Shown: piece by piece, positions 1 through 19,589 of the stretch | Position numbering within the stretch: position 1 is the first letter of the stretch | How the letters are laid out: every line of letters begins with the position of its first letter | Source: Candidatus Woesearchaeota archaeon | Lineage (GTDB): Archaea; Nanobdellota; Nanobdellia; Woesearchaeales; ARS49 | DNA length: 64,000 nucleotides | Direction: 5' to 3' | Assembly (NCBI GenBank): GCA_038891615.1 | Contig: JAWADY010000002.1 | Location: 32,001-96,000, forward strand | The notes under the pieces: generated by a model | The model's input: the letters and a program-made list of their open reading frames with translations, nothing else | What the model was told of the DNA's origin: nothing | Database searches by the model: none | Translations under genes and position numbers: made by a program

Positions 1-31
1 CAACGCAAGCTTAAAGATTTTGGGTGAAAGA

Positions 32-829
32 ATGTTAAGCAAATCTGCAAGTCAAACAAAACTAGCATCCTTTGAAATAGTCGGCACAATAGCAATCGTT
101 GAAATTCCTCGAGGGTTTGGCAAGTATGCAAAGACTATTGCCAAAAGGTTAATGCTCCAAAATCCCCGCATCACCACTGTTGTCAAAAAAATTGGAGGAA
201 GAAGAGGGACCTTTAGACTTCAAAAAGTCAGGATTTTAGCCGGCAGACGCACAACCTTAACAGAGGCAAAAGAGTCGGGCCTTAGAATGCTTGTTGATGT
301 TGCAAAGGTATACTTTAGTCCAAGACTTGCTAACGAGAGGCTGCGGATTGCAAGAGCAGTAAAACCAGGTGAGCATGTTCTTGTAATGTTTTCTGGGGTA
401 GCTCCATATCCCTTAGTCATCGCGCGATACTCCAGAGCAGAACGGGTTTATGGCATTGAAATAAATCCTGTTGCGCATGCGCTTGCTGTTCAAAATGTCG
501 CGCTGAACAAACTTGGACACAAGATTGTGCTCTTTAAAGGAGATGTAAGAAAGATTATCCCACAACTCTGGCGCAAGTTTGATAGAATCGTGATGCCTTT
601 GCCAAAAACAGGCAAAGGCTTTCTCAACCTTGCGCTTTTAGTCGCAAAAAAAGGTGCAACAATTCATTACTATACCTTTGCGCATGAGAATGAACTTTCA
701 GCTGTTGCTGGAGATGTCGAAAAGGTATGTGCTAGCTTGAAAAAGAGGTGTAAGATCTTGCAAATAGTTCGAGCAGGCCAGCATAGTCCAAGAGTTTGGA
801 GGATTTGTGTTGACTTTAAAGTTTATTGA
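32..829 (+). CDS. trm5: tRNA (guanine37-N1) methyltransferase, Trm5/Met-10+ family
   Basis: VYFSPRLANERLRI, MFSGVAPY SAM motif, EINP, FDRIVMPLP; ATG at 32 preceded by GGTGA. Confidence 0.85.
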   Translation: MLSKSASQTKLASFEIVGTIAIVEIPRGFGKYAKTIAKRLMLQNPRITTVVKKIGGRRGTFRLQKVRILAGRRTTLTEAKESGLRMLVDVAKVYFSPRLANERLRIARAVKPGEHVLVMFSGVAPYPLVIARYSRAERVYGIEINPVAHALAVQNVALNKLGHKIVLFKGDVRKIIPQLWRKFDRIVMPLPKTGKGFLNLALLVAKKGATIHYYTFAHENELSAVAGDVEKVCASLKKRCKILQIVRAGQHSPRVWRICVDFKVY

Positions 830-837
830 GCTAAACC

Positions 838-1854
838 TTATGGTAGGAATGTTTGCCCAAGCTCCTCAAGCACTTGTTTATTTTGCTCAAACCACTTTCT
901 TGCCTTTGAGAAAAGTTTTGTAAGAGCGTCCGCAACACCTTTTTTTAGATCAGCTGGATGAAGCTTTTTTTCAACAAAAGCCTGTTCAAGTTCAGCATAA
1001 CTTTCAAACTCAGCCCTTCCACCAAACCTCTCTTGCCTTTCGATTGTTAGCCTTCCAACGATAGGAAAAATGATGTGCCTGCATATCTGGAGGACTGGAT
1101 TGTTTGCAATCTCTCCTGCCGGACAATATGCTGCGCTCAATTTCGCAGCAATCTGCTCTTCGCTATCATAGATTTTTATGTGCGAGGCTGGAATTGATGC
1201 TGACATCTTTGTTCCAGGCCCCTTTAAGGAAAGTACTAGGGGAGTCATTATTTCAACCCTTTTCTTGTAACCAAGCTTTGGAAGCCACTCACGAGCATAA
1301 GCAAAGATGTGTCTTTGGTCAAGCCCTCCTAATTGCATGTCAACTCCCAGATATTCCTCATCAAGGGCTTGCATTATTGGATATATCAGCTCAGAAACCT
1401 TTGGGCTTTTCATCCTCGTAACCTCTGAAGCAGCTCTTTTTGCACGCTCGACGGTGGTTAGTGTTGAGAGCTTAAGCACATCAAGGGAGTATGCCTTTTC
1501 AAGCTGAAAGCTTGAGCCTATGACAAAATTTGGAGTCTCTTGCCAAGGGAGTGCAAGTTCTATGCATTTTTTGTAGTATGCCGTCCTTTTCTCAGTTTCC
1601 TCCCAGGGTGTCTTTAGGTCATCCAGCGCCGCATGAATGTCAGCAAGTAGGATTTTTGTTTTTATTCCAGCTGACATAAAATCAAAAAGTTTCGAAAGAG
1701 GCACAAGATAGCCAATGTGAAAAGGACCTGTTGGCGCTGTTCCATAATACGCAAAAAGCCTTTTCTTTTCTCTTAGAAGGCTTACAAGCTCCTGCTCTGT
1801 CAATATTTCCGCAACATTCCGCTTGATTAGCTCAAGCCTTTTTTCAACATCCAT
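838..1854 (-). CDS. tyrS: Tyrosyl-tRNA synthetase, archaeal type
   Basis: YYGTAPTGPFHIGY (HIGH-like), LADIHA, YPIMQALD, GGLDQR, KMSAS. Confidence 0.93.
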   Translation of the reverse strand: MDVEKRLELIKRNVAEILTEQELVSLLREKKRLFAYYGTAPTGPFHIGYLVPLSKLFDFMSAGIKTKILLADIHAALDDLKTPWEETEKRTAYYKKCIELALPWQETPNFVIGSSFQLEKAYSLDVLKLSTLTTVERAKRAASEVTRMKSPKVSELIYPIMQALDEEYLGVDMQLGGLDQRHIFAYAREWLPKLGYKKRVEIMTPLVLSLKGPGTKMSASIPASHIKIYDSEEQIAAKLSAAYCPAGEIANNPVLQICRHIIFPIVGRLTIERQERFGGRAEFESYAELEQAFVEKKLHPADLKKGVADALTKLFSKARKWFEQNKQVLEELGQTFLP

Positions 1855-1903
1855 TCCCTTAAGCAGCTCTGTGCTTTATTTAAAACTTTTCAGCAATTTT
1901 AGG

Positions 1904-1945
1904 CTGTTAACTTATTGTAGATAATTAGTTTTCTACTTAAAAGAA
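1904..1945 (+). repeat. Left terminal inverted repeat of island
   Basis: CTGTTAACTTATTGTAG (17 nt exact) followed by ATAATTAGTTTTCTACTTAAAAGAA, versus reverse complement of right end GCATTAATCTTCTGCTTAAAAGAA. Confidence 0.8.
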
Positions 1946-2011
1946 GACCTCATTAAAGTCTTAATGGCAATAGTGTTTGTAATAAAAAGGAAGATTTAAT
2001 GTTTAAGGCAG

Positions 2012-2040
2012 CAACATTAAGTTAACAGAACCCTAAAAGG
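2012..2040 (+). repeat. Third, internal copy of the terminal motif (same orientation as right end)
   Basis: CAACATTAAGTTAACAGAACCCTAAAAGG versus 9072-9100 CTACAATAAGTTAACAGAACACCAAAAAG. Confidence 0.65.
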
Positions 2041-2056
2041 TGACTCCGCAGCAATT

Positions 2057-2542
2057 TCACTTAACGCTGGACGCATTTTCAAACTTCCCGTGGCATCTCT
2101 TATATTTCTTACCGCTCCCGCAGGGGCACGGTTGATTTCTCGCAATCCACCAATGGAATTGGGTTATCATCACCAAAAGGGTTGCTTTTCTTATCTTCTG
2201 GGACTGCATCCATATCTACGGTACCTACGACTCTAAATTTAAGTGATGGTTTTTTTCACGAATCAAAGACACCAAACCACCAAATGCATCTTGAGCACTA
2301 GATACTAATTCAACAAATTCATCCATATCCAAAACAACTATGGGGAAGTGGGGGCAAAAATAGCCGCCATCATTTCCAGTTACAAATGGCTTGGCATCTT
2401 TTTTCGTTTTTACAAACAATAAATACGATTTATACTCCTTTTGCAACAATGAGTTACATTTGGGACATCTCTTACTATCTTTTATATCAGATAACCAATA
2501 CATTTCACGAGGTATTGACAATTTATATCTTTCAGTTCTCAT
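2057..2542 (-). pseudogene. SEC-C motif protein broken by two frame changes; probable gene cassette
   Basis: ORF 2542-2225 (CPKC...GGYFCP); another frame continues [35 protein letters not shown]; after a second frame change it reads [19 protein letters not shown] (SEC-C) to a stop at 2057. Confidence 0.75.
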
Positions 2543-2566
2543 TCATATCCCCTTGTTGCGTCTTGC

Positions 2567-2653
2567 GTATAACGTATGCGATTAAGAGAAGTTTTTGCGA
2601 AGCAAAAATTTTGGGAAAATTTGCAGGATTTTCCCTCCTAATCACTGTTAGCG
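2567..2653 (-). other. attC-like integron cassette recombination site (87 bp)
   Basis: Minus strand CGCTAAC...GTTATAC ends, inner arms GTGATTAGGAG / CTCTTAATCGC, two internal hairpins (TTTTTGC-GAA-GCAAAAA; GGGAAAAT..ATTTTCCC); lies just upstream of the 2542 start codon. Confidence 0.7.
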
Positions 2654-2677
2654 TCCTGAATGAAGTGAAAGCCCGTA

Positions 2678-3160
2678 CATCCACCCCATATAGAATTGGA
2701 AAGTCAAAACCTCTTGTGTTAAAGAGTATTATTTCTTTTAATTTTTCTATCTCATCATTAGAATATCCAAATTCTCCACCAAAAATAAGACCTTTTATTT
2801 TTTTAAATATGCCTAATAGTCTTAAATCGGCTAAAAAACCATCTATATTTGATAAAGATCTTCTTTAAAAAAGATTCCCCTTCAGGAGTTTCTAAAAAAA
2901 GAATTTTTCCTGAAAAATCAGGCCAATATTCAGTTCCTTTCGTATGCATAATTGAAGTAATACATCCGCCAATAATTTTTCCCATAGCATTCCCTTCTCT
3001 TAACCACTCATAACCTTTATTTTTTTATATTCTCTTTTTAATTGTAAATCCTCTTTTTTAACCAGTTTGCTTTTTTGCAATCAGTCCATTTTTCTGATGG
3101 TAAAACCTTGCCGATAGGTAAATTAGAACAAATACAATTAATAAATTTTTCATACCAGCA
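2678..3160 (-). pseudogene. Fragmented second S66 (MccF/LD-carboxypeptidase) peptidase
   Basis: Pieces in different frames: LPIGKVLPSEKWTD..., GYEWLREGNAMGKIIGGC..GTEYWPDFSGKILFLETPE, IDGFLADLRLLGIFKKIKGLIFG..FPILYGVDV; N-terminus and catalytic His region absent. Confidence 0.8.
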
Positions 3161-3180
3161 GAAAATTTTCATTTATAAAT

Positions 3181-3936
3181 TCAAGAATAATTTCTACATA
3201 AAACTGCCCATTTTTGATAAGGTTCTTTTAATCCAAAATTTCTAAAAAAGATAATTTTCATATTAACTCTTTTAGCTAAGTTTTTTAGTAATTCTTTGGA
3301 AAAAGTTAAATACAGTGCTTCGCTACCTAATCTCATTTTATTATTTTCATCATAAAATGTAATTTTAAAATATCTTTTTCTATTAATTTTATATGTAGTA
3401 ACGTTAAAAGACCATTTATTTTGTAAATATCTTTTTTGAGATTGGCCGTCTTTGTAAGTTTTTGAATAATCTCGTTCATCAATCCAGCTAAAAATAATGA
3501 TCCCTTTTTCTTTCAGATTTTTTTTAATTTTATTCAAAAATCGTTGCAAAATTTTAATATTTGGAAACGTTTGGATTAAAAAAGTGGAAATGTAGATTAT
3601 ATTAAATTTCTTTTTAAGATTTAACTTTTTAATATCTTTTGAGATAAATTTTGCATTTTTAATTTTTTTATTTCTTGCAATCTTTATTAGTTTTTTTGAT
3701 ATATCAACACCAAATAATGCCTTGAAATCTTTGAGATATAAAAATAGATTTCCTGTACCACATCCTATATCTAATAAAGAAGTTTTATACGGACTGATCT
3801 TACTTTTGTTCAAAAGTTTTTTAATAAATTTTGCTTCTCCTTCATAGTCATTCAAAAAGAAATAAGTAATGTCATAATAATTTTTATCTCCAAAGAATCT
3901 AAATTTTGTTTCTTCAACATTTTTTAGTTTTTTCAT
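3181..3936 (-). CDS. Class I SAM-dependent methyltransferase
   Basis: DYEGEAKFI..LLDIGCGTG..GVDIS. Confidence 0.85.
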   Translation of the reverse strand: MKKLKNVEETKFRFFGDKNYYDITYFFLNDYEGEAKFIKKLLNKSKISPYKTSLLDIGCGTGNLFLYLKDFKALFGVDISKKLIKIARNKKIKNAKFISKDIKKLNLKKKFNIIYISTFLIQTFPNIKILQRFLNKIKKNLKEKGIIIFSWIDERDYSKTYKDGQSQKRYLQNKWSFNVTTYKINRKRYFKITFYDENNKMRLGSEALYLTFSKELLKNLAKRVNMKIIFFRNFGLKEPYQKWAVLCRNYS

Positions 3937-4471
3937 ATTTCTCTTTAAGTAAACTTAGAATAATCTCATCATAAAATTTTCCTCTTAAATAATGATGTTT
4001 AGGATTTATTCCATCTACATTAAACTTAAATTTACTTAAAAGTTTAAGCGATTTTTTATTTTCAGCTATAACTTTTGTAAATATCTTTTTTAGATTTAAT
4101 TCGTTAAATCCAAAGAGTAGTACTCTTTCTACCGCTTCACTCATTATCCCTCTATTCCAATATTTTCTATTCAAAAGATAGGCCAAACCTGCTCTTTGGT
4201 TTATTCTATCTATCTCATATAAACTTATAGTTCCAATCAATTTCTTATTAAAAATTATGCCAAAATCATATGCCTTTCCTTTTTTAAAATTACGAATAGA
4301 TTCTTTTATGTAATCGTTAGCGTTATCAAGGGTATAGGGCCAAGGAATAGATGGAAGCCATTTTATCACTTCTTTAGTAATATTTTTCTTTATGCTTATA
4401 GAGTCTTCTTTTCTTAAGTTCCTAAGAAACAATCTTTTTGTTTTTAATAATATAAGATTATTCCGTTGCAT
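3914..4471 (-). CDS. GNAT N-acetyltransferase, RimJ/RimL family
   Basis: LKTKRLFLR, WPYT, LIGTISL, YWNRGIMSEA, ENKKSLKLL. Confidence 0.9.
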   Translation of the reverse strand: MQRNNLILLKTKRLFLRNLRKEDSISIKKNITKEVIKWLPSIPWPYTLDNANDYIKESIRNFKKGKAYDFGIIFNKKLIGTISLYEIDRINQRAGLAYLLNRKYWNRGIMSEAVERVLLFGFNELNLKKIFTKVIAENKKSLKLLSKFKFNVDGINPKHHYLRGKFYDEIILSLLKEKYEKTKKC

Positions 4472-5465
4472 TTTCCAATATTTCTATAATCTTTTTTTCT
4501 GAATTTATTCTTGTTTTGACCCCTATCGGGAGAGTAATCATTGGCGATGTGTGTCCTATATCTACGTCCATTATAATCGGGATTTTATATTTTTCTCCGA
4601 AATCTTTTAATATATCAAATAATTCTCCTTCAGGAGAATCAATTTTTAGATTGAATGGTCTTCCGTATATTAAACCTTTTATTTTATTGAAGACTCCTAC
4701 TTGTTCTAAATGTACAAGATTTCTTTCAGTAGAAGAAGTTGATTCTCCTTCATCTTCTAAAAATAGTATTGCATTAGAAAAATCAGGAAAAAATTCTGTG
4801 CCAGTCATTGCACAAATAGTATTTAAATTTCCTCCAATTAAGACGCCCTCAGATTCTCCTTCATAAACACATTTAGGAGGGGAGGCTTTCTTCATTTTTC
4901 TTTTTCTATTATCTTCTTTTTCCCACCACAAAATTTCTTCAGTGTATTCGTCTGGGAATTCTAAAATCCCTAAAGGTCTTACTTCAAAAAGGGCTTTTTT
5001 AAACCATTTAATAGTAAATGGATCTGGGCCACCATACTCTCCAAAAGTTGGTAAAATAGTAGGTCCATTAAATGTTATTAAATTTGATTTTTGATATAAA
5101 GCTAGATTTAGCATAGTTATATCGCTAAAACCGCAAAAGATTTTTGGATTTTGTTTTATTAAATCGAAGTCCAAAAAAGGAAGCACAGAATTAGAATTCC
5201 ACCCTCCAGTTGAACATATTATTGCTTTTATCTCATCATCTTTAAAAAAATTCATAATATCTTCTGCTCTTTGTTTTGATGTCCCTCCTGTATGCCTAAA
5301 GGAAGATACTGCATATTTTCCAAGTTTTACTTTTAATCCTAACTTTTCTAAAGCAACAAGACCTCTCTGTAATCTTCTAGGAAAAGGTTTTATTGTAGAA
5401 GATGGACTAACTATCCCAATTGTGTCCCCTTCTTTTAAATGTTTTGGCTTGATTATTTTTACCAT
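4458..5465 (-). CDS. S66 peptidase, MccF (microcin C immunity)-like
   Basis: LKEGDTIGIVSPS, GGWNS, GFSDIT (Ser), LFLEDEGE (Glu), DIGHT (His); EYTEEILWWE aromatic loop. Confidence 0.88.
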   Translation of the reverse strand: MVKIIKPKHLKEGDTIGIVSPSSTIKPFPRRLQRGLVALEKLGLKVKLGKYAVSSFRHTGGTSKQRAEDIMNFFKDDEIKAIICSTGGWNSNSVLPFLDFDLIKQNPKIFCGFSDITMLNLALYQKSNLITFNGPTILPTFGEYGGPDPFTIKWFKKALFEVRPLGILEFPDEYTEEILWWEKEDNRKRKMKKASPPKCVYEGESEGVLIGGNLNTICAMTGTEFFPDFSNAILFLEDEGESTSSTERNLVHLEQVGVFNKIKGLIYGRPFNLKIDSPEGELFDILKDFGEKYKIPIIMDVDIGHTSPMITLPIGVKTRINSEKKIIEILENATE

Positions 5466-6286
5466 CTTTCTTTTGTCAAAAAAAGTTCTATCTCATCTTG
5501 TTTTTTTCTTTTTTGAAAGAGCAATATAGAAAAATTACAATATTGAAGATTTTTGTTAAATAATCTAAAAACTTCAAGAAGTTTTTTTCTAAGAATTTCT
5601 TTTTTATGAAAGTTACGAAGATGATCTTTATTTATAAGATAATTTACATAATCTTTAAGTCGTTTTTTTCTATCTAGATATATAAAATCTCTGTCATAAT
5701 ATAATTCTAAAGAAATATTTAGCTTTAGTGAGACACTTCTAAATAGATTTATCCAAAAATCTTTGTCCCAGATTTCAATCTTTGTTCCAATTACTTTTGA
5801 TATCTTCTCAACCAAAGAAATTGGAGGTTTTTTGGAATAATAGATAGGTATCGCCACTAAAGTTCCTCTTGTTTTCAAAACTCTTAAATATTCTAAAATA
5901 GCTTTCTCTTTATTTTCTAAAAAAGAAGTAACATTGCTACACCATACAATATCAAAACTTTCGTCTTTAAAAGGAAGATTTAAGGCATCGGCCACTTTAA
6001 ACCTAGTTCTTTTTTTAACACCTTGTTCTGATGCATATCTTTTTGCTTCCCTTATTGACTCTTCGTTAATATCAATTCCTACAGCTTTACATCCTGTTAA
6101 CAAAGCAAGATTTACAGACGTAAAACCAGTGTTACATCCAATTTCTAATATTTTTTTAGATTTATCTATATTGGCATATGTTGCAACATAATTAATAGTA
6201 CGTATTCCTCCTGAAGGCCTATTTCTTTCTCTAGTAAGAGCCACTAATTCTGAGTAGGTCATATTATCTATTTCTTTAATATTCAT
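5459..6286 (-). CDS. Class I SAM-dependent methyltransferase
   Basis: ERNRPSGG, ILEIGCNTG, GIDIN, DALNLPFKDESFD, EYLRVLK. Confidence 0.88.
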   Translation of the reverse strand: MNIKEIDNMTYSELVALTRERNRPSGGIRTINYVATYANIDKSKKILEIGCNTGFTSVNLALLTGCKAVGIDINEESIREAKRYASEQGVKKRTRFKVADALNLPFKDESFDIVWCSNVTSFLENKEKAILEYLRVLKTRGTLVAIPIYYSKKPPISLVEKISKVIGTKIEIWDKDFWINLFRSVSLKLNISLELYYDRDFIYLDRKKRLKDYVNYLINKDHLRNFHKKEILRKKLLEVFRLFNKNLQYCNFSILLFQKRKKQDEIELFLTKERW

Positions 6287-7388
6287 TTTTAAGAAGATCA
6301 TCCAAATTTTTATAATAAACATTTTCTCCTTTTTTTATTGTTATTCTTCCGCTCTCAACTTCTTTATCTCCTATAAGATATTTTTCGTTTACACTCCAAA
6401 AATCAGCGAAGTCTAATTTTTCTTTTAATGTTAAATTTTTTCTATCATCCAAATAAATTTTATTATAGTTTTTTCTTAAAATAGTATACACTCTATCTGC
6501 CAATTCTACTTGTTTTTTTTCATTTATCTTAATAGGTATCACTACTTTTTCGAAAGGTTTTATTTTTTCTGGAAGATTAATTCTGCTTCCTAAAAGATTC
6601 GATTTTAAAGATGCTAGTAAAATACGTTGTGTTCCAATTCCATAAGTCCCTACAATGACCTGTTTAAATTCATTAGTTGAAGAGATGTATCTTACATTAA
6701 ATTTTTTAGAATCTAAATAACGATAGGCCATTGCTAAACTTAATCCTACAATCTTTTTTCCATTATATTCAAAAACTTCCCCATTATCATAAGGAAATAT
6801 ATATTCTATCCCATTATTTTTTTCTTTTTTCACAAAAGAAACATTCATCTTTTGGAACAAGCAGTCTAATGTTTCTTCAAAAAGAGCCATGGATTCAATA
6901 AATTCTTTTTCATTTTTGTCTAAAGTTATCATTACTATTCCTCCAAATTGTTTAGTTTTGAGGGTTCCTTCTGGACGTTTTATATTTCTGAAACATTCAC
7001 TTAAAGCAAAATATCTTAATGGTAGCTGATAATGAGATAATATGTCTTTTTCAAATAGTTCTAGTAAATATTCTTCGGATGTTGCAAGAAGAACTTTATT
7101 GTTGAATTCAAATATTTGATCTGAAAAATCTTTATACTTCCCGCTTTTTAATAATAAATCTTTTTTATGGATTAAGGGTATCTGTACTTGATAAAACTCT
7201 TTTTTATTTAAATAATCAATAATTAAGTTATTGATGTTATCTAATAAAATCTTTCCAAAGGGAGAAAAGAAAAGAAATCCTGCATCTATGTAAGAAGCGA
7301 GTCCTAAATTTAAAACTAAATCTTTATCATTAACATGTTCTTGAAATTTTCTAAATTTTTCTTGAAAAATAATTTTTGATAGTCTCAT
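6276..7388 (-). CDS. Divergent bacterial-type prolyl-tRNA synthetase paralog (catalytic + anticodon-binding domains, no editing insert)
   Basis: MRLSK..., AGFLFFSPFG, KSGKY, LATSEE, SHYQLPLRYF..FRNIKRPEG.LKTKQF (degenerate motif 2), GTYGIGTQR (motif 3), LDDR..LKEKL.FAD. Confidence 0.75.
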   Translation of the reverse strand: MRLSKIIFQEKFRKFQEHVNDKDLVLNLGLASYIDAGFLFFSPFGKILLDNINNLIIDYLNKKEFYQVQIPLIHKKDLLLKSGKYKDFSDQIFEFNNKVLLATSEEYLLELFEKDILSHYQLPLRYFALSECFRNIKRPEGTLKTKQFGGIVMITLDKNEKEFIESMALFEETLDCLFQKMNVSFVKKEKNNGIEYIFPYDNGEVFEYNGKKIVGLSLAMAYRYLDSKKFNVRYISSTNEFKQVIVGTYGIGTQRILLASLKSNLLGSRINLPEKIKPFEKVVIPIKINEKKQVELADRVYTILRKNYNKIYLDDRKNLTLKEKLDFADFWSVNEKYLIGDKEVESGRITIKKGENVYYKNLDDLLKNEY

Positions 7389-7390
7389 TT

Positions 7391-8527
7391 TCAAGGCACC
7401 ATTATTTTATCTACCCTTGGAAAATGACAAACACTCCAAATAAAAGGCATTTCTAATAAGCCTTGTAAAAACCTCTCCCATCCAAGTCCAAACCCTGATG
7501 TTTCTTTGTAGTTTTCTAATATTCTTGATTGTAAATAGGGTTCATAATCTTTTTTTGGTAAATTAAAAATTTTTGCTTTTTCTTTTAATTCTTTTATATT
7601 TCTTACTCTATGACCGCTACCAACTATTTCTATATAGCCAGGCCATATGAAATCTGCATTATCTGCTACTAATGGTTGTTTACCATCTACTACTGCATGA
7701 TAAAAAGGAACTTCGAATAGAGGAAACTCTTTAATTATGACCATTGTCTCTAAGATCTCTGTTATTTTGACTTCTTCCCATGCTCCAAAATTTTTTAGAG
7801 TAAATTCTTTATATTTTCTGTTTTTTGTCTCGTTATACAATAAATCCAAACACTCTTTAAAAGTTATTTTAGGAGTTTTTAAAATATTTTTAGCAAATTT
7901 TTTAAGTTCTTCTAACTTACTTTCAGTTAAAAAATAAGAAAGATCTTCTTTATGGCTTTTAAATAAATCAAAAATAATCTTTTTTATTAATTTCAAGACC
8001 ATCTTTTCATTTTCTTCTTGACTAATTTTTCCTTCAAATTCAATATGATGAAATTCTGATAAATGTGTAACATCTGCTCTTTCTTTCCTAAAAGAATTAT
8101 ATATAGAATACGCCTTATTGATATTTTTTTGAAGCAAAGCTAATTCTAAATAAATTTGAGAAGATTCTGATAAAAAAACTTTTTTTGGCAGGTTAAACCA
8201 TTTTAAAGTTATTGGACAAGTATCTTTTATGTAATTAAGTTTATACTTTCCATAAACTGCACATGGTGAAGAAATCATTCTCGTAGTGAGAGGTAAAGTT
8301 ATAAATAATGCTCCTTCTTTATCAAAAAATTCATTAGCAGATTTATTTATAGAATGGTTTATTTTAGATAAATGAAACCACACATCATTATTCTTCAAAG
8401 ACTCAACTCGGTTTTTAATTTCATTCACAGAAACGTCAATTTCAAGAACATCCTTAATAGGCCTAAATATTTTATTTCCCCTATAAGAAATAGTTCCATC
8501 TTTATTGGCATGATAAGGGCCAAGCAT
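7391..8527 (-). CDS. AsnRS/AspRS-like class IIb catalytic-domain-only protein (asparagine synthetase A-like / aaRS paralog)
   Basis: FLSESSQIYLE, SFRKE..HLSEFHHIEFE (motif 2), EIVGSGHR, SGFGLGWERFL (motif 3), FPR; N-terminus too short for the OB-fold anticodon domain. Confidence 0.8.
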   Translation of the reverse strand: MLGPYHANKDGTISYRGNKIFRPIKDVLEIDVSVNEIKNRVESLKNNDVWFHLSKINHSINKSANEFFDKEGALFITLPLTTRMISSPCAVYGKYKLNYIKDTCPITLKWFNLPKKVFLSESSQIYLELALLQKNINKAYSIYNSFRKERADVTHLSEFHHIEFEGKISQEENEKMVLKLIKKIIFDLFKSHKEDLSYFLTESKLEELKKFAKNILKTPKITFKECLDLLYNETKNRKYKEFTLKNFGAWEEVKITEILETMVIIKEFPLFEVPFYHAVVDGKQPLVADNADFIWPGYIEIVGSGHRVRNIKELKEKAKIFNLPKKDYEPYLQSRILENYKETSGFGLGWERFLQGLLEMPFIWSVCHFPRVDKIMVP

Positions 8528-8651
8528 AACATAAATACAAAAAATGGATATTTATAAAAATTGCTCTTTAAAATTCGTAAAATTTTTTAGATTAAGCAAC
8601 CCCTCTCAATCTTGTGGCAGATGGTCGGGGGACAGCCGAATTCTGAATTAC

Positions 8652-8690
8652 GCCTAACAACTATTAAGCGAGATAAATATTCGCTTTATA
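8652..8690 (-). other. Candidate attI-like site (GTTAGGC core) between cargo operon and recombinase remnant
   Basis: Plus-strand GCCTAAC at 8652-8658 = GTTAGGC (GTTRRRY) pointing into the cargo genes; adjacent AAGCGA..TCGCTT inverted repeat. Confidence 0.45.
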
Positions 8691-8747
8691 GTATAGATGA
8701 GGTATAAAAAGCGAGATTTTATGAAGTTAGTTTCCATAATAAACTGG

Positions 8748-9038
8748 ATGGTAGATGATAGTAAAATCCATTCTCCAGAAGAAAAATATAAACTGATTGG
8801 TAAGCTAGTCGAGGAACTAAAACTTAGAAGATATTCCTATCAAACAGGCAAGTCATATATTTCCACAGTGAAAGACTTTCTGTCTTCAGGTAAAACGCTG
8901 AGAGAGTTTCTGCTATTAGAATCTGGTACGGATATTCGATACATTCAGCAGTTATGAGGGTATAAAGATTTGAAAACGACACAAATCTACACTCACGTTG
9001 CAAATGAGAATATAAAGAAACTTGCAAATCTGCTTTAG
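8748..9038 (+). pseudogene. Tyrosine recombinase (integron-integrase/Xer-like) remnant with large internal deletion and nonsense codon
   Basis: N-terminal ELKLRRYSYQTGKSY fused directly to [29 protein letters not shown]; TGA at 8955-8957 and Tyr in place of His in the usual LLGH motif; box I/central region missing. Confidence 0.88.
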
Positions 9039-9047
9039 CCTTTAGAG

Positions 9048-9088
9048 TTCTTTTAAGCAGAAGATTAATGCCTACAATAAGTTAACAG
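9048..9088 (-). repeat. Right terminal inverted repeat of island
   Basis: TTCTTTTAAGCAGAAGATTAATGCCTACAATAAGTTAACAG, reverse complement of 1904-1945 with few mismatches. Confidence 0.8.
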
Positions 9089-9169
9089 AACACCAAAAAG
9101 AAAGATTTAAATATGAGCATCATCCTTTTTGATTTAAAAGTTGTAACATTTTTGTGAAAAGGTGAACAG

Positions 9170-9433
9170 ATGGCTGATGATGAAAAGAAGTTCTCAAGAC
9201 AAATTCTTGGCAAAACTGTTGTTTCCAAAGCAGGAAAGCGCTTTGGGACTGTAGGGGATATTATTTTTGAAACAAAGTCGGGTGAGCTAATACATCTTGT
9301 GCTTACCGATCCTACGATATATGCTGAAAAGCTTGAGCTTGAGCGCTCAAAAGAAGGTGAAATGCTCATCCCCTTTAGCGCAGTCATTGCTGTTGGCGAC
9401 TTTGTAGTCGTGTCCGAAGAAGACCTTGTTTAG
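9170..9433 (+). CDS. PRC-barrel domain protein (archaeal CdpB-like)
   Basis: LGKTVVSKAGKRFGTVGDIIFETKSGEL...IPFSAVIAVGDFVVV. Confidence 0.88.
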   Translation: MADDEKKFSRQILGKTVVSKAGKRFGTVGDIIFETKSGELIHLVLTDPTIYAEKLELERSKEGEMLIPFSAVIAVGDFVVVSEEDLV

Positions 9434-9508
9434 CAATTTTCTTGTAGCTTAGCGATTGCAAACCTTTCAACAGGCAAAGTTATTTAAAGCAGCATTTCTT
9501 GGCTTTTT

Positions 9509-10477
9509 TTGGGGGTTAAATTGGAGAGCATATGGACTGAGAAGTATAGACCAAAGAGCTTTTCGGAATTTTATGGTCAAGAAGGAATAATTGAAAGGAT
9601 AAAAGCACTTGTTGAAAAAAAGAATCTTCCCCATCTACTATTCATAGGTCCTGCAGGGGTTGGCAAGACTTCCCTTGCACTCGTCATTGCACGAGAGGTT
9701 TTTGGAAGCAGGTGGTCTGAAAATTTTCTTGAGCTGAACGCCAGCGATGAACGAGGTATTGATGTTATTCGCAGCAAAGTAAAGGATTTTGCACGTACGC
9801 GTGCTATTGGTGATGTGCCTTTTAAGATAATCTACCTTGATGAGTGTGATGCCCTAACAAAAGAAGCCCAGCAAGCACTTCGCAGGACAATGGAAAACTA
9901 CACAAGGACCTGCCGATTTATCCTTTCTGCAAACTATGGCTCAAAAATAATTGATCCAATTCAGTCAAGATGCGCGCTATTCCATTTCAAGCCTCTCGAA
10001 AAGGAACATATCTATGGGGTCATTGAACGTGTGGCAAGCGCAGAAGGATTGTCCATAAGTTCAGAAGCAAAAGAAAGCCTTTATACAGTTTCCGAAGGAG
10101 ACTGCAGAAAGCTTCACAACATTCTTCAAAGCTGCGCAGCTCTTGGAAAAGAAATTACGCCTGAACTTGTACTCTCAGTCGCAGGCGCTAGTGCTTCTAC
10201 AGAGTTAAGGAAAGTTCTTGAGCTTGCCCTTGCAGGTCGGTTTGTTGACTCACGAAGGCTTCTCCTTGATGTTATGCTTACAAATGGCTTGTCTGGCGTT
10301 GATGTCATAAGGCAATTGCAAAAAGAAATTTGGTCGCTTCCTCTTGAGCCAAGGAAAAAAGTCGCCATAATTGATAAATGCGGTGAAATAGAGTTTAGAA
10401 TGGTAGAAGGATCAGACCCATACATCCAACTTGAAGCACTCTTAGCACACATTTGCGCAGAAGGAATGTACAAATAG
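9509..10477 (+). CDS. rfcS: Replication factor C small subunit
   Basis: WTEKYRP, GPAGVGKT, LELNASDERGID, LDECDALT, IQSRC; start codon uncertain (TTG). Confidence 0.96.
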   Translation: MGVKLESIWTEKYRPKSFSEFYGQEGIIERIKALVEKKNLPHLLFIGPAGVGKTSLALVIAREVFGSRWSENFLELNASDERGIDVIRSKVKDFARTRAIGDVPFKIIYLDECDALTKEAQQALRRTMENYTRTCRFILSANYGSKIIDPIQSRCALFHFKPLEKEHIYGVIERVASAEGLSISSEAKESLYTVSEGDCRKLHNILQSCAALGKEITPELVLSVAGASASTELRKVLELALAGRFVDSRRLLLDVMLTNGLSGVDVIRQLQKEIWSLPLEPRKKVAIIDKCGEIEFRMVEGSDPYIQLEALLAHICAEGMYK

Positions 10478-10497
10478 TTTTAACAAGCGTTTTATGG

Positions 10498-11421
10498 CTA
10501 TCCAGAGCGTTTCACTGTCAGGCTTGTCTGCTTAACCCCTTCAAAGTCATAGCTTGCGGTTATTGTTAGTCTTTGCTCAAAGTCAGCCGGTTTGACCTGT
10601 TGCGTACAGCTAATGCTCTTCTTGCCATCGAAAAGCGTAACGGTGCCTGATGCAACTGTTCCAGAGGTTGTTAATCCGGTGCAACTTATCTCTCCAAGCC
10701 CTGCGTCAACCGTTACACTAACTTTGTTTTCTTCAAGGCAGTTGCTCCCCGACGCAAAAACCTTTCCTTCTCCTTTTTTGACAATATCAAAGCTAAATCC
10801 AATCTTGTCAGATGTCCGCGCCGTCTCTCGAAGGTTTTCAATTTGTATCGGCGCACCCGAATTAAAGACGGTCTTTGCTTCATTAATTTCACACAATCCA
10901 CCAGCCTCTGGATTTAGTATGTTTTTGCGTACGCAAAGCAAACTTTCAGCTTTTGTGCCGTAGTTGTAACAAACACTTGCGGCAAGTGGGAATGTGAGAG
11001 ATGCTCCTGCTAGCCTTGACTTGTAATTTAGGTTTTTGAACTCAACAGTCACAGGTAGACTCTCAATGATACTGCCACTTAGGTCACGCTTGCGTTCAGG
11101 AAGATCCTCTGTAGGCCTTCCAACGAGCTGTTCCTCAAGAACACCAAACTCAGATGGATTTATTCCAAAAAGTTTAACCCGCACCTTATCCTTGCTTACT
11201 GTCCACTCCCCCTTATTTTGAAGTCGCACCGTTACATCAAAAAAGTCTCCCCCGCCATCAAAAACTTCTGAACGGAAATCAACAAATTCTATAGAAAGCC
11301 CGGTTGTTCCTCCAAGAAATGGCGTTCTTTCTGGTGTTTTTTCCTTAACAGGCTTGCAAGCTACTAACACAAACAAAAGCAATGAGAGCAAAAGCAGTTT
11401 CTGGAAAAACTTTCTTTTCAT
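10498..11421 (-). CDS. Putative lipoprotein, beta-rich disulfide-bonded surface protein (paralog family A)
   Basis: Lipobox LVAC; GGTTGLSIEF, NKG, VCYNYGT..LC, SGAPIQI, ASYDF shared with 11464 and 14750 ORFs. Confidence 0.7.
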   Translation of the reverse strand: MKRKFFQKLLLLSLLLFVLVACKPVKEKTPERTPFLGGTTGLSIEFVDFRSEVFDGGGDFFDVTVRLQNKGEWTVSKDKVRVKLFGINPSEFGVLEEQLVGRPTEDLPERKRDLSGSIIESLPVTVEFKNLNYKSRLAGASLTFPLAASVCYNYGTKAESLLCVRKNILNPEAGGLCEINEAKTVFNSGAPIQIENLRETARTSDKIGFSFDIVKKGEGKVFASGSNCLEENKVSVTVDAGLGEISCTGLTTSGTVASGTVTLFDGKKSISCTQQVKPADFEQRLTITASYDFEGVKQTSLTVKRSG

Positions 11422-11463
11422 TTTTTCAATTTCTCTTTTTATACTTATATAAATCTTTCTGGT

Positions 11464-12408
11464 TTACCTGCTTGAAAGGATTGTAATATCGCGAACAACA
11501 GAGCTTCTATAACCATAGCTTATGGTGATTGTGAGTGGACTAACAAATGCGCTTCCTTGCGGTATTCCTGAGAGCTCACAAAAAACTGTCGCAAGCCCGC
11601 CAGAAAGCTTTACATCTGGGGCAGGTCTGCAGGTTGATGTTATTGAGCGACCTGCAACAGATACATCATCCAGCCGCACATAGTCAAACTCATCATAGCG
11701 CAAGCCTTCTGCTGCATAAGGGGAGCATTTGCTTAGATATGTTGCACCTGGCTTAAAGACCTCTCCACCGCCAACATTTGCAATTGCTATCCTGAACCTT
11801 GTTTTACCTTTTGAAGGCTCAAGCTGGATGTTTGTGACTGCTATTGGCGCTGCCTGCCCTCCTCCGAGCGCAACATTTTGCGGAGTGCAAACCTTTTGCT
11901 TAACCGTCAGCGAGTATGGGTCTGGGTCTATGCAAACATTTGCAGTAGCAATCGTTTGGTAGCCATAGCAAGCTGTTCCAAGGATTCTTGTTCTGTACTG
12001 GTCGATGCCTTTTGACCTCAAATCCCTTATTGTACCTCTAAATTGTACAACATCCTGTAGCCCAATTGGCTGAGCCAAACTTTTACCTTCGAGCTTAGGA
12101 ATTTGTGCTCCAAAAGTTGAAATCCCAGTTATTATGCTTGGGTCAAAGCCTGAAATGTATACCTTGTCTCCAGCCCCTCCAACATCAAATGCTCCTCTGT
12201 TCTCAATCCTCAACACGGCTTCAAAAGGTTGGTCGTCATAGAGCCTTGTTGGCGGAAGGTTTGGTTCAAAGCTTAGTACAAGTCCTTGGCTTCCAACTCT
12301 AAAATCAGGCACAAGCTGTTCTTCACGCTGCCGTCCCCTCAATGGCGCACAAGCAGATAAGAGCAAAAGTGCTAAAAGCAAGCCTGCAATGGCCATTACT
12401 TTTTTCAT
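11464..12408 (-). CDS. Putative lipoprotein (paralog family A)
   Basis: Lipobox LLSAC; GSQGLVLSF..PP..Y, NRG, ACYGYQT..VCID, QAAPIAV, ISYGY. Confidence 0.7.
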   Translation of the reverse strand: MKKVMAIAGLLLALLLLSACAPLRGRQREEQLVPDFRVGSQGLVLSFEPNLPPTRLYDDQPFEAVLRIENRGAFDVGGAGDKVYISGFDPSIITGISTFGAQIPKLEGKSLAQPIGLQDVVQFRGTIRDLRSKGIDQYRTRILGTACYGYQTIATANVCIDPDPYSLTVKQKVCTPQNVALGGGQAAPIAVTNIQLEPSKGKTRFRIAIANVGGGEVFKPGATYLSKCSPYAAEGLRYDEFDYVRLDDVSVAGRSITSTCRPAPDVKLSGGLATVFCELSGIPQGSAFVSPLTITISYGYRSSVVRDITILSSR

Positions 12409-12588
12409 ACCGCTACTTTGCCAACGTTCTTATTTAAAACTATCGTTAGAGGAGACAATTTTGCATTTATATCTTTGAATTTTGCCTTTATTTTGAGTCT
12501 CCCAATTTCATCTTTCTTAATACTTTTTTGAGTGCATTTTAGACAAATAATATTCTCCATCATATGTGCTACAGATAATTATATGGTG

Positions 12589-12604
12589 AAAAGTATTTAA
12601 ATAT
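12589..12604 (+). promoter_or_regulatory. Archaeal BRE/TATA-like promoter
   Basis: AAAAGTATTTAAATAT a little over 20 nt upstream of ATG 12626. Confidence 0.45.
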
Positions 12605-12625
12605 AAAAAAGATAAAAGAAAAAAA

Positions 12626-12835
12626 ATGTACAAACAAAAAACTACTTATAGCACGAATGCAAGTGGGCGTACCGACGAAAGATCTAACTATAACACGCGA
12701 GTGAAACGTATAGAAGACAGGGATAAAAGCGGGCTTTTGATGAAATTGGAGTGGCCAGAAGAGAGTATTTTTGATGATGGGAAACAAAATAACACTCTCA
12801 CTGGAGCAGCTCACCCAGGATGCTGTAAGCAATAA
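12626..12835 (+). CDS. 69-aa peptide, candidate RiPP precursor
   Basis: ATG just downstream of TATA-like box, directly upstream of rSAM/SPASM gene; ends TLTGAAHPGCCKQ; overlaps the rSAM 5' end. Confidence 0.4.
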   Translation: MYKQKTTYSTNASGRTDERSNYNTRVKRIEDRDKSGLLMKLEWPEESIFDDGKQNNTLTGAAHPGCCKQ

Positions 12836-14023
12836 GTCAGATCTAATCAGGATAGATAAGGATGTATATGCAGTAGTACGTCCAAACGAGATTTTATATG
12901 TGCGTAAAGAAGAATTAGACAATTTTAAGGATTATTCTATCCAGCCTATAAAGGAAAAAGGAAAATCCTGTCTTTCAGCAACATTTGTTCCAACACTTGA
13001 TTGTAATTTGAGGTGCATATATTGTTATGCTCGTGGTGGGGAACAAAAAGATATGATGCCCTCTTCAATGGCTCGTAGATTTTTAGAAAAAATGTATGAT
13101 CCAGCAAAACACGATGGAATTCACTTAAGATTTGCAGGCGGGGGAGAACCTTTTCTCAATTTTGCGTGTATAAAAGAAGCAGTAGAAACTGCTAAGAAAT
13201 TAACAGTAAAGTTTCTTTACATTGTATAACTAATGGGACTTTTAATAAAGAACAATTGTTTTGGATATTAAAAGAAAGGCCTCATATGAGGGTTTCTTAT
13301 GATGGTTTATCTCAGGAAATACAAAGGCCTTATAGAGGAGGAGGGGATTCATCAAACATAGTAAGAAGAAATATCCGAGAGCTTACAGATAAAGGAATAG
13401 AAACTGTTGTTCAGTCTACAATTACATCTTTAAATGTTTCTAAGATGAGAGAACTTGTATCAGAATTTTATGAGCTAGGCGTTCGAACAATAAAAATGGA
13501 ACCAGTTTATATAACCGAGAATTCAAGGGGAAATGCGAAATTGAATATTTCCCCTTCTGAATTCGTTTCAAATTTTCTAGACGCGGTTAAATATATCAGA
13601 GAAAATAATCTGGAAATGCAGATAGATACTGCTTTTTTTTCACGACCAACGCTAGGAAATTATTGTAGCTTATCTACTGGAAATATAATCTTAACTCCAA
13701 GTGGAGGTATTAGTGGATGTGTTGAAATAACAAATAATTGTGATTATCATTCAGGAGATGTCTTTTATGGAAAATTTGAAGAAGGTTTAGGGGAAATCAG
13801 GTTTGACGAGTCTAAGAAAAAATCTTTTGGGAAATTTCATTTTAGTAATTACACTAATTGCCCATCCTGTAATTTAAAACTTATTTGCAAAGGAGGATGC
13901 CCTCTTAGAAGAATCTGGAATCAGGAAGATCATTTTTGTAAAATTACTAGAAGGTTAGTTCCGCAACTTCTAAAATTATTTTACAAGGATCCTTCTTATG
14001 TTAAAATATTTATTAAAAAATGA
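12777..14023 (+). pseudogene. Radical SAM/SPASM protein split by a single frameshift near 13205
   Basis: CNLRCIYC and GGGEP in first frame; second frame opens VSLHCITNGT upstream of 13256, then VSYDG, QRP; SPASM Cys: YC..GC..CPSCNLKLICKGGCP..FC. Confidence 0.85.
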
Positions 14024-18354: not shown

Positions 18355-19416
18355 ATGAAAATCCTAAAACAAGATCTTAAACACGGCGAGATTACTGTAA
18401 GGGTTGAAACAGCCGATGATCTTTGGCTTCTTGGCCAGATTGTTTATGTTGGAGATGTTGTTAGAGGAAAGACTGTGCGTAAGATAAAATTTGGTGATAC
18501 AGAGACAAAAGTAGTGTCAGAAAAAAAGGTCGTCTTTTTGGCATTGTCTGCTGAAAAGGTGGAATGGAATCCTGAGACAGGCTTAAGGGTTTCAGGAAGG
18601 GTTCTTGAAGGTCCTCAGGATGTTCCAAAGGGAAGCTGGCACACCTTTGATGTGTCTGAAGGAGATACCTTGACAATAACAAAGCCAAGCTGGCCAAGGT
18701 TTCATCTTGAAAGGTTGCGTGAGGCCGTTGAACTTGAGCCAAAAGTTCTTCTTTGCTTGATGGATAGGGAAGAAGCTCTTTTTGCACTTCTAAAAAAGCG
18801 TGGCTATGAGCTTCTTGGAAGAATAAAGGGAATTGTAGCAAAAAAGGCAGCAGAGGTGAGGGCAAAGGACTTTTATAAAGACATAATTTCTGAACTAAGG
18901 CGATACGATGCGAGATTCAAGCTTAGCAGCATAATTGTTGCAAGCCCGGCCTTTTGGGCAGAAGAACTGCTAAAGGTTCTTGGCGCAGACCCTCTTACTG
19001 ATAAGATTCGTACAACTTCTTGCAGTTCTGTCGATGAAAGCGCCATTGTAGAGGTGGTTGGCAAGCCTGAAATACAGGAGGTGTTAAAGCGACAGAAGTT
19101 TGCACGCGAGCTTAGAATTGTGGAACGCTTTATTGGAGAGCTTTCAAAAGGCGGTAAAGTTTGTTACGGCCTTGATGAAACTTCCGCTGCTATCGAGGCT
19201 GGCGCGGTGGATACCCTTCTTATTACAACTGCAAAAATTGCAGATGCGAAGGCACAAGGAAGCGAGGCATTTGAGCAGCTAGACAAACTGATGAAGCAGG
19301 TCGAAGCAGCAAAAGGTTCTGTTGTTGTAATTTCATCTGAGCATTCTGGTGGACAACGCATTGATGGTCTCGGGGGAATTGCAGCACTTCTTAGATATAA
19401 GCTTCAGGAAGCGTAA
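18355..19416 (+). CDS. pelA: mRNA surveillance protein pelota (Dom34)
   Basis: ETADDLWLL, LRVSG, GSWHTFD, ASPAFW, YGLDE..GAVDTLL, GLGGIAALLRY. Confidence 0.95.
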   Translation: MKILKQDLKHGEITVRVETADDLWLLGQIVYVGDVVRGKTVRKIKFGDTETKVVSEKKVVFLALSAEKVEWNPETGLRVSGRVLEGPQDVPKGSWHTFDVSEGDTLTITKPSWPRFHLERLREAVELEPKVLLCLMDREEALFALLKKRGYELLGRIKGIVAKKAAEVRAKDFYKDIISELRRYDARFKLSSIIVASPAFWAEELLKVLGADPLTDKIRTTSCSSVDESAIVEVVGKPEIQEVLKRQKFARELRIVERFIGELSKGGKVCYGLDETSAAIEAGAVDTLLITTAKIADAKAQGSEAFEQLDKLMKQVEAAKGSVVVISSEHSGGQRIDGLGGIAALLRYKLQEA

Positions 19417-19486
19417 ATGCGCCCAAACTCTATTTTTAAGGATATAAATCTTTAAATATCAAAGTTTATCGCTACTTCTGAGTGCT

Positions 19487-19561
19487 ATCCCCAGTGGTAC
19501 TAACCTGTTGGGACAAAACCGCAACATTTATATTATGACCAACATTTAGTCCCAAAGGGTA
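19487..19561. promoter_or_regulatory. Three copies of RTCCCMANNGGTW around a TATA box; candidate operator
   Basis: ATCCCCAGTGGTA 19487-99, inverted AACCTGTTGGGAC 19502-14, GTCCCAAAGGGTA 19549-61; TTTATA at 19527. Confidence 0.5.
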
Positions 19562-19589
19562 GAAACCAAAAAAAAGGGGGAGGATTTGA

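Follow-up and report, generated by a model that had tools for sequence, protein, structure and literature searches.

Recombination in integrons is believed to require a domain found only in the integrase IntI, and the outer stem of integron sites follows the consensus RYYYAAC/GTTRRRY. In class 1 integrons of the Tn402 type the inverted repeats IRi and IRt mark the two ends. The part of an archaeal survey on which we draw describes 75 of 6718 archaeal genomes as having integrons; its six IntIs carry the IntI-specific domain, and most arrays lack an integrase (CALINs, clusters of attC sites lacking an integrase) (Ghaly et al. 2022, PMC9668308). The subject of this analysis is a stretch of 64,000 nucleotides (nt) of an archaeal genome, G000 (661,270 bases in five contigs, guanine-cytosine (GC) content 0.41, 97.9% complete), comprising positions 32001-96000 of contig C2 and called the window below. 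At window positions 1897-9098 lies a low-GC element of 7.2 kb that separates tyrS from a PRC-barrel gene. With a probability of about 0.7 we take this element to be a fossil gene-cassette platform that worked in the manner of an integron, using a family of 269-amino acid (aa) XerA-type recombinases without the integron-specific domain.

The platform resembles an integron in its divergent plan, with the recombinase gene running one way from a docking site and the cassette array the other. The cassettes have one polarity, and their fold-back sites have an outer stem conforming to the integron consensus and an inner stem, separated by an asymmetric bulge. The junction is G|TT, and the place of a given cassette in the array varies between genomes. 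It differs in having a XerA-like recombinase without the IntI-specific domain, a docking site with a conserved stem-loop, inverted end sites belonging to the platform itself, and a cassette of 6.1 kb with six genes and seemingly its own promoter box. Because the recombinase lacks the IntI-specific domain, we regard the platform as an analogue of integrons and not as a member of the integron family. The arrangement of integrase and cassettes between short inverted end sites is shared with the Tn402-type class 1 integrons; here, however, there are no transposition genes, and both ends are centred on a GTTAAC core on which the same recombinase may act.

Starting at the dead recombinase gene and moving away from it, the order is docking site, cassette 1, fold-back site, cassette 2, a second fold-back formed by two end sites termed A and B, and the tyrS promoter. 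A first-pass annotation of the same DNA had proposed the layout of intI, attI, cassette and attC; this holds by homology and by the site model built here, but not as a strict integron, since the recombinase is XerA-like. The GTTAGGC core that it placed upstream of the recombinase, pointing away from it, is present on the minus strand at 8652-8658, 39 nt before the ATG of the open reading frame (ORF) and 90 nt before the start codon of the family (8748). As a bare heptamer it is not significant, with three occurrences in the window against 5.7 expected. Its context was examined by aligning the upstream 130 nt of the 30 best recombinase loci, 24 of which have at least 150 nt of upstream sequence. 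The motif AATTg....TAACAcCTATTAA.CG is present in 23 of these 24 loci (locus L040 of genome G370 being among the 24), and GTTAGGC is the reverse complement of its TAAC end. Beyond the motif conservation falls to ~30%. The motif is followed by a covarying stem-loop and then by a box resembling the archaeal B recognition element and TATA box (BRE/TATA), and the arms of the docking site are weakly inverted around TGTTA. In the window this region folds better than shuffled sequences (z -2.7), and it is matched weakly (27.7 bits) by the covariance model R1 described below. The features that define an integron attI site, docking next to the integrase gene and insertion at G|TT, have their counterparts in the boundary found in 23 of 24 loci and in the break of homology immediately before TTAGGC in the window and in genome G353, from which we infer the crossover itself.

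The hairpin at 2567-2653, earlier described as attC-like, is more stable than its shuffles (z -2.9 and -3.4) and is homologous to the sites that separate cassettes in G353, sharing an identical 17-mer in one arm. The consensus fold of three sites has an 8-bp outer stem (CGCCTAAC/GTTAGGCG, of the type GCCTAAC/GTTAGGC), one versus four unpaired bases, an 11-bp inner stem and a variable loop, and the sites are 100-155 nt long. Three of the eight outer-stem pairs are broken in the window site. A strict regular expression made from the three sites retrieved those of G353 only, and was replaced by the model R1, which has 19 pairs and was built from three sites including that of the window. Run over 535,913 nt from 57 sources, R1 finds eight sites beyond its seeds (E 2e-13 to 0.023), with an array of three in G060 and two in G064. 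The non-redundant sites number 11, from seven loci, and every one is found upstream of the recombinase gene and on the strand opposite to it; at least one site is present in six of the 30 recombinase loci (each taken with 1.5 kb on either side). When five whole genomes with close recombinase copies were searched, three had sites and seven of the 11 hits were on the recombinase contig; over the whole of G000 the model finds 2558-2661 and the weak docking-region match, and nothing else. In the alignment of 11 sequences fitted to R1, 90.5% of cells are paired, against 29-36% with the partners slid, and double changes occur at 11 of the 19 pairs; none of 500 shuffles equals the observed values. 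Thus the imperfect inverted repeats, R and L boxes and unpaired bases of an integron attC site are all found with the model built here, and the same-orientation cassettes of an integron array are seen as two cassettes in the window and as two to three sites of one polarity in each of G353, G060 and G064. The first-pass annotation had staked its proposal on an attC model and on whether intact homologues are ordinary XerA-like enzymes without arrays. The model of this analysis does hit the hairpin, and the intact homologues head arrays yet are XerA-like. Rfam matched nothing in window 1-12000 at E 0.1 or better.

The most direct comparison is with G353 (locus L046), in which an intact recombinase, 92% identical, has three cassettes upstream on the opposite strand. 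The order there is docking site, a cassette of two ORFs, a 140-nt fold-back, a cassette of one ORF, a 125-nt fold-back, and the third cassette. This third cassette corresponds to the leader and first 174 codons of cassette 1 of the window (window 7974-8678 versus L046 2175-2878, 85.7% identity over 714 nt). The shared sequence begins exactly at TTAGGC in both genomes, and this junction is joined to the docking site in the window and to the end of a fold-back site in G353. Cassette 1 runs from 8657 down to 2573 (6085 nt) and its six genes overlap at their ends. A multi-gene cassette of about 6 kb had been suspected; it is real, and all the cargo ORFs between 2057 and 8527 lie on the minus strand as had been stated. 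Cassette 2 contains two ORFs that jointly match a 169-aa SEC-C protein. The further ORF said to start about 25 nt after the GTT is there (2542-2225), but its start is 31 nt past the GTT of the hairpin. Beside the fold-back site of cassette 1 is a truncated and frameshifted second MccF-like gene, its coordinates obtained by subtracting 660 from tblastn pieces on locus L001. Its presence there suggests that the operon now found replaced, or recombined into, an older cassette, and fits the alternative already raised, of an operon inserted into a cassette.

The tyrosine recombinase remnant, reported before on the plus strand, is supported by a PF00589 match, by its N-domain and by full-length homologues. 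Read through its stop with X, it matches positions 140-170 of the 172 of PF00589 (the last 31; E 1e-6) as well as a SAM-like N-domain, and the histidine of its LLGH motif is changed to tyrosine. It is 76-89% identical to eight full-length recombinases of 269 aa but lacks their residues ~57-228, and blastn against an intact copy reveals a 516-nt internal deletion, in frame, at ~8914. A search for longer proteins with the remnant gave 278 matches among 546 candidates, of which the best are 269-aa proteins from sources labelled Pacearchaeota, Woesearchaeota, Aenigmarchaeota, Diapherotrites, Micrarchaeota and others. All five intact homologues tested match the NCBIfam XerA model NF040815 with 204-217 bits (cut-off 220), and match the integron-integrase model TIGR02249 in two stretches with 179-192 bits (cut-off 265). 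One intact homologue aligns in one piece over its full length with the XerA structures 4a8e and 5hxy (E 4e-41 and 5e-41), whereas its alignment with VchIntIA (PDB 2a3v) falls into two pieces, with query residues 175-190 standing opposite residues 178-238 of the chain (15 versus 60). Inspection of the homologues for the IntI-specific insertion, proposed in the first-pass annotation, thus went against an integron integrase: ~45 residues are missing where the IntI-specific domain, close to patch III, sits. On these alignments the family is XerA-like and lacks that domain.

How is the recombinase family distributed? A match at E 1e-40 or better is present in 239 of 401 sampled genomes of the phylum. 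Close copies (79-92% identical) occur in only a handful of the 401; among these several are broken or cut short, and a contig end is often 150-230 nt away. Copies with 80-92% identity are scattered patchily over different DPANN families. Contigs ending 150-230 nt upstream of the recombinase gene include those of L019, L026, L030, L033, L035, L036, L041, L042, L044 and others; such ends would be expected if the cassette side were strain-variable or repeated. The family resembles the XerA of the archaeal XerA/dif system in aligning with it over its full length and in scoring just below the NCBIfam XerA cut-off, but differs in its patchy copies that adjoin foreign low-GC DNA, often at contig ends, some being pseudogenes. 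Judged by this distribution the family behaves as a mobile gene and not as a housekeeping one. The whole of the 97.9%-complete G000 contains no further match to the recombinase protein and no other PF00589 match. With no intact tyrosine recombinase at all, G000 has no XerA for resolving chromosome dimers; of 28 genomes sampled from its family, 18 are likewise without a recombinase match at E 1e-40.

The element lies in an archaeal neighbourhood, flanked by genes for Trm5/TYW2, TyrRS, a PRC-barrel protein and the RFC small subunit. Its limits are wider than the 2057-9038 given previously. The GC content is 0.21-0.31 from about 2600 to 8600 and 0.42-0.45 on either side. The interval between tyrS and the PRC-barrel gene, which had been singled out for comparison with related genomes, was examined by a TyrRS search of 30 relatives, all of other genera and with TyrRS identity of 51% or less, the 11 best matches being taken as loci. 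The PRC-barrel gene adjoins tyrS in seven of the 11 and the RFC gene comes next in six; the gap is 0.13-1 kb (~130 nt in one and ~950 nt in others), and the island proteins have no match in any of the 11 loci. Because the relatives keep tyrS and the PRC-barrel gene together across a short gap free of island genes, and because the island is low in GC, the 7.2-kb stretch is, by this comparison, an insertion. The ~950-nt gap of relatives encodes a Cas4-like nuclease (for example at L002 2601-3404, and at L004 2563-3414 in genome G009), a Cas4/PD-(D/E)XK-like protein of 267-283 aa with a C-terminal cysteine cluster whose gene is absent from the same place in G000.

Both edges of the insertion carry end sites. 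The pair at the left edge, A and B, forms a 147-nt fold-back whose basal stem is 18 bp long (z -2.5 and -1.9), and the window has two exact copies of the 13-mer of the end-site core where 0.11 would be expected. An imperfect direct repeat of 25 nt (2014-2038 and 9074-9098, 22 of 25 identical) brackets the island, with an inverted third copy at 1904-1945. The complete genome G053 (L049, C1 12190-16272) has a platform of 4.1 kb between ends of the same kinds, likewise inverted, containing a recombinase pseudogene with eight stops and a restriction-modification pair (a 300-aa protein and a 447-aa DNA methyltransferase). In G064 and G168 the end site beside the recombinase gene coincides with a change of composition. 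By these comparisons the end sites bound the platform as a whole, and the platform itself was probably once mobile by way of its inverted GTTAAC-core ends. The empty palindromic target GTTCTGTTAACAGAAC, with up to one mismatch, was found in seven of 401 genomes against nine of 401 for the reversed control, which gives no support. A search for target-site duplications gave a possible 11-nt repeat at a second locus of G000, on contig C3, and nothing consistent in the window or in G053. That locus (~18860-20310; L013 9860-11311) is a second and more decayed platform, with inverted B and A end sites, a 1.4-kb low-GC patch carrying an FkbM-type methyltransferase gene, and scraps of docking site and recombinase.

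These observations can be assembled into a scheme. In live members of the family the docking site, a stem-loop followed by TGTTA, precedes the recombinase gene, and cassettes stack there on the opposite strand, each closed by a fold-back with its 8-bp outer stem, asymmetric bulge and 11-bp inner stem. The recombinase would act in the manner of IntI, exchanging strands at G|TTA between docking site and fold-back, and in this way cassettes would be captured and shuffled. With the recombinase dead in G000 the two cassettes are frozen in place, the first carrying an intact, translationally coupled operon of six genes, and the outer GTTAAC-core ends would have allowed the platform to move as a whole. 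Since the recombinase is dead, the fold-back eroded and G000 without another tyrosine recombinase, this copy is best seen as a fossil. Hot-spring metagenome runs contain the island DNA, and contigs of four such runs (from two studies, and possibly the source of this DNA) hold the island unchanged. A joint of 8794 to 9040 in the runs comes from the paralogous remnant on contig C3, and joints with short sides (21-25 nt) were disregarded. Other short contigs, in runs X1 and X6, have the same fold-back arms as window 2580-2651 with a loop 52 nt longer, pointing to related cassette sites in other members of the hot-spring community.

Several points weigh against the cassette platform. Recombination was not observed directly in any data examined, and no contig of the four runs joins docking and fold-back sites or the outer sites, although contigs drop rare forms. 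The domain on which IntI depends to recombine attC sites is absent from the family. R1 was built from few, related sequences, and fitting the pair-count alignment to it favours structure. The window holds one fold-back site only, and 17 other loci with the ligase module of cassette 1 (L054-L070) are without an R1-type site; nor do these have a shared leader. The exact crossover point would be fixed by one pair of junctions, and conservation of the docking site extends ~9 nt past GTTA (AATT). Unlike the promoterless cassettes of integrons, for which the platform supplies the promoter, cassette 1 apparently has its own TATA-like box, kept in G353.

A simpler history would make the element an ordinary integrated island of 7 kb that came in by site-specific recombination, flanked on both sides by direct att repeats and with its integrase at one end, its hairpin a terminator and its genes no cassettes. 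A 25-nt direct repeat that encloses low-GC DNA and has its right copy 36 nt from the recombinase gene is what such an island would leave, and an end site stands at a compositional boundary in G064, G168, G053 and the second G000 locus. However, the end sites of G053 and of the second G000 locus are inverted rather than direct, and an island of this kind leaves unexplained the boundary conserved throughout the family upstream of the recombinase gene, the homologous fold-back arrays upstream of intact copies, and the joining of one cassette start to different partners in two genomes. We consider it improbable as a full account; the docking motif and the G353 array led us to demote the simple integrative island, and it is kept as the outer layer of the cassette platform. 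An island targeted to a tRNA gene is ruled out, as ARAGORN finds zero tRNA genes in the window.

The XerA-like nature of the recombinase raises the alternative of pdif-type Xer modules, in which double-stranded cassettes lie between dif-like sites and are handled by the chromosome-dimer resolvase with no folded strands. The short inverted sites around palindromic GTTAAC at the platform ends would suit this, as would the weakly inverted arms around TGTTA at the docking site. Yet the sites between cassettes are fold-backs of 100-155 nt with covarying stems and not dif sites of 28 bp, and their polarity with respect to the recombinase gene is constant whereas pdif sites alternate in polarity; with the empty palindromic target in seven genomes against nine for its reversed control, we judge the pdif alternative distinctly improbable. 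The remnant of a canonical integron with IntI is more improbable still, although the C-terminal 35 residues match the NCBIfam integron-integrase model best (53 bits) and the outer-stem boxes fit the integron consensus. Integrons are indeed reported in DPANN genomes in the part of the survey used here (PMC9668308). Against this stand the split VchIntIA alignment, with 15 residues opposite 60, the single-piece alignment with XerA structures, and scores of 179-192 bits for TIGR02249 against a cut-off of 265, where the XerA model gives 204-217 against 220.

What does cassette 1 carry? Its six genes (Table 1) resemble in part the agrocin 84 cluster of pAgK84 from Rhizobium rhizogenes K84, where agnA is directly followed by a methyltransferase gene and accompanied by the resistant LeuRS gene agnB2 and the MccF-like agnC5. 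In tblastn against pAgK84 as a single-record database, AgnA is matched at 26% identity (E 2e-24), AgnB1 at 36% (E 4e-57) and AgnC5 at 33% (E 4e-53), so that the AgnA-like ligase, AgnB1-like methyltransferase and MccF-like peptidase of an agrocin 84-type core are all present, in the same succession of AgnA-like and AgnB1-like genes, together with a synthetase paralogue. The cassette differs in that these are the only three matches, the synthetase paralogue is ProRS-like where agrocin 84 has the resistant LeuRS AgnB2, other agn genes and the exporter are missing, and the host is archaeal. The peptidase matches MccF (E 2.5e-58) markedly better than it does muramoyl-tetrapeptide carboxypeptidases (1e-18 to 3e-29). 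The GNAT protein matches the MccE C-domain among many other GNATs (E 4e-12). Of the microcin C cluster, defined by an adenylating enzyme of the MccB type and the precursor peptide MccA, these two proteins are the only counterparts, and no ThiF/MccB-like domain was found among the island proteins. PADLOC returns generic methyltransferase matches only. Relatives of the ligase come from Woesearchaeota and Nanoarchaeota (59-73%) and from Bdellovibrionales, phyla of the Candidate Phyla Radiation (CPR) and one gammaproteobacterium (44-50%). At the 17 ligase loci a methyltransferase gene directly follows the ligase in 15, an S66 peptidase gene is present in 15 and a ProRS-like gene in six. Extra genes for class I synthetase-like proteins (MetRS-like or Ile/Leu/Val-like) or ATP-grasp ligases are found at L054, L058, L059, L068 and L070, which suggests that the module copies form a family of variable small-molecule pathways.

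The likeliest role of this cargo, at about even odds in our estimate, is to produce an aminoacyl-nucleotide mimic that acts as a poison of a tRNA synthetase, and to shield the cell from it. Two findings count against the agrocin likeness: the 19-kb stretch of pAgK84 compared has 16 annotated genes, agn and flanking, and the other 13, AgnB2 included, have no island match at E 0.01 or better; and the ligase is no closer to AgnA than to housekeeping AsnRS (26-29% each). Rather unlikely, in our estimate, is a cargo for defence or housekeeping, combining detoxifying MccF-like and GNAT enzymes with spare synthetase-like enzymes or serving AsnA-like asparagine synthesis. Enzymes of the MccF and MccE types serve as stand-alone immunity genes according to the portion of PMC8323819 drawn on here, which also proposes roles for the agn proteins, and the absence of an exporter gene from the cassette would fit defence. 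But the adjacency of ligase and methyltransferase genes is that of AgnA and AgnB1 in pAgK84 and recurs in 15 of 17 loci, and the ATP-grasp and further synthetase-like ligases of some loci are better suited to synthesis. As for a housekeeping function, the ligase does score with asparagine synthetase A models (E 1e-31), but every NCBIfam score is far under its cut-off.

Table 1. Features assigned within the element and at its edges, in window coordinates.
Feature	Position	Strand	Remarks
Fold-back pair of platform end sites	1897-2043		Reversed A end 1904-1950, B end 1995-2033, core TAAGTTAACAG
Cassette 2, split gene	2057-2542	-	ORF 2225-2542 and SEC-C motif ORF 2057-2209; GC 0.42; extends to ~2044
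attC-like folded recombination site closing cassette 1	2558-2661	-	105.6 bits (seed of model); partly decayed
Second MccF-like S66 peptidase remnant	2643-3039	-	Residues ~188-314 only, frameshifted; tblastn
SAM (S-adenosylmethionine)-dependent methyltransferase, 251 aa	3181-3936	-	Domain match
GNAT acetyltransferase, RimJ/RimL/MccE-C-domain kind, 185 aa	3914-4471	-	Domain match
MccF-like S66 serine peptidase, 335 aa	4458-5465	-	MccF 3gjz E 2.5e-58; AgnC5 33%
SAM methyltransferase, AgnB1-like, 287 aa	5459-6322	-	36% over 281 aa
ProRS-like class II synthetase paralogue, 372 aa	6276-7394	-	With anticodon-binding domain
AsnRS/AsnA/AgnA-like class II catalytic core, 378 aa	7391-8527	-	Without anticodon-binding domain
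Cassette 1 leader	8528-8657	-	Starts at TTAGGC; TATA-like box ~30 nt before first gene
attI-like docking region and recombinase promoter	8643-8726		GCCTAAC 8652-8658; stem-loop 8661-8691; BRE/TATA-like box 8706-8721
Dead XerA-like tyrosine recombinase gene	8697-9035	+	ORF 8697-8957, frame continues through TGA 8955-8957; family start 8748
A end site after recombinase gene	9040-9098	+	Boundary with host DNA

The fossil platform may be one instance of something broader. There is, we think, an even chance that DPANN archaea run a widespread and unpublished parallel to integrons, in which a XerA-type recombinase without the IntI domain would capture and shuffle cassettes at folded sites, among them a multi-gene agrocin-like set shared with ultra-small bacteria, while the platform would hop by way of its GTTAAC-centred ends. 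Our literature search listed no paper in which a XerA-type recombinase is connected with attC arrays. If the parallel is true it could explain many of the archaeal attC clusters that lack an integrase, and would provide a candidate recombinase for them. If a Xer-type enzyme does the job of IntI, then either the mechanism has arisen on more than one occasion, or it is simpler and more ancient than has been assumed. A six-gene pathway travelling as one cassette, with a core that is also present in DPANN, CPR bacteria and Bdellovibrionales, would offer a route by which small antibiotic or immunity pathways pass among episymbionts. The value of the dead copy is that it provides a clear and well-bounded example and a pointer to intact relatives.

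Two smaller features lie at or beyond the right edge of the element. At window 9095-9113 there is a AAAAAGAAAGATTTAAATA-like string of a kind that recurs upstream of genes throughout the genome (many matches of 11-16 nt), and such strings are probably the local form of the BRE/TATA promoter. A further stretch of lower GC content (0.32-0.37) is found at window 12400-14000, following two lipoprotein-like genes.

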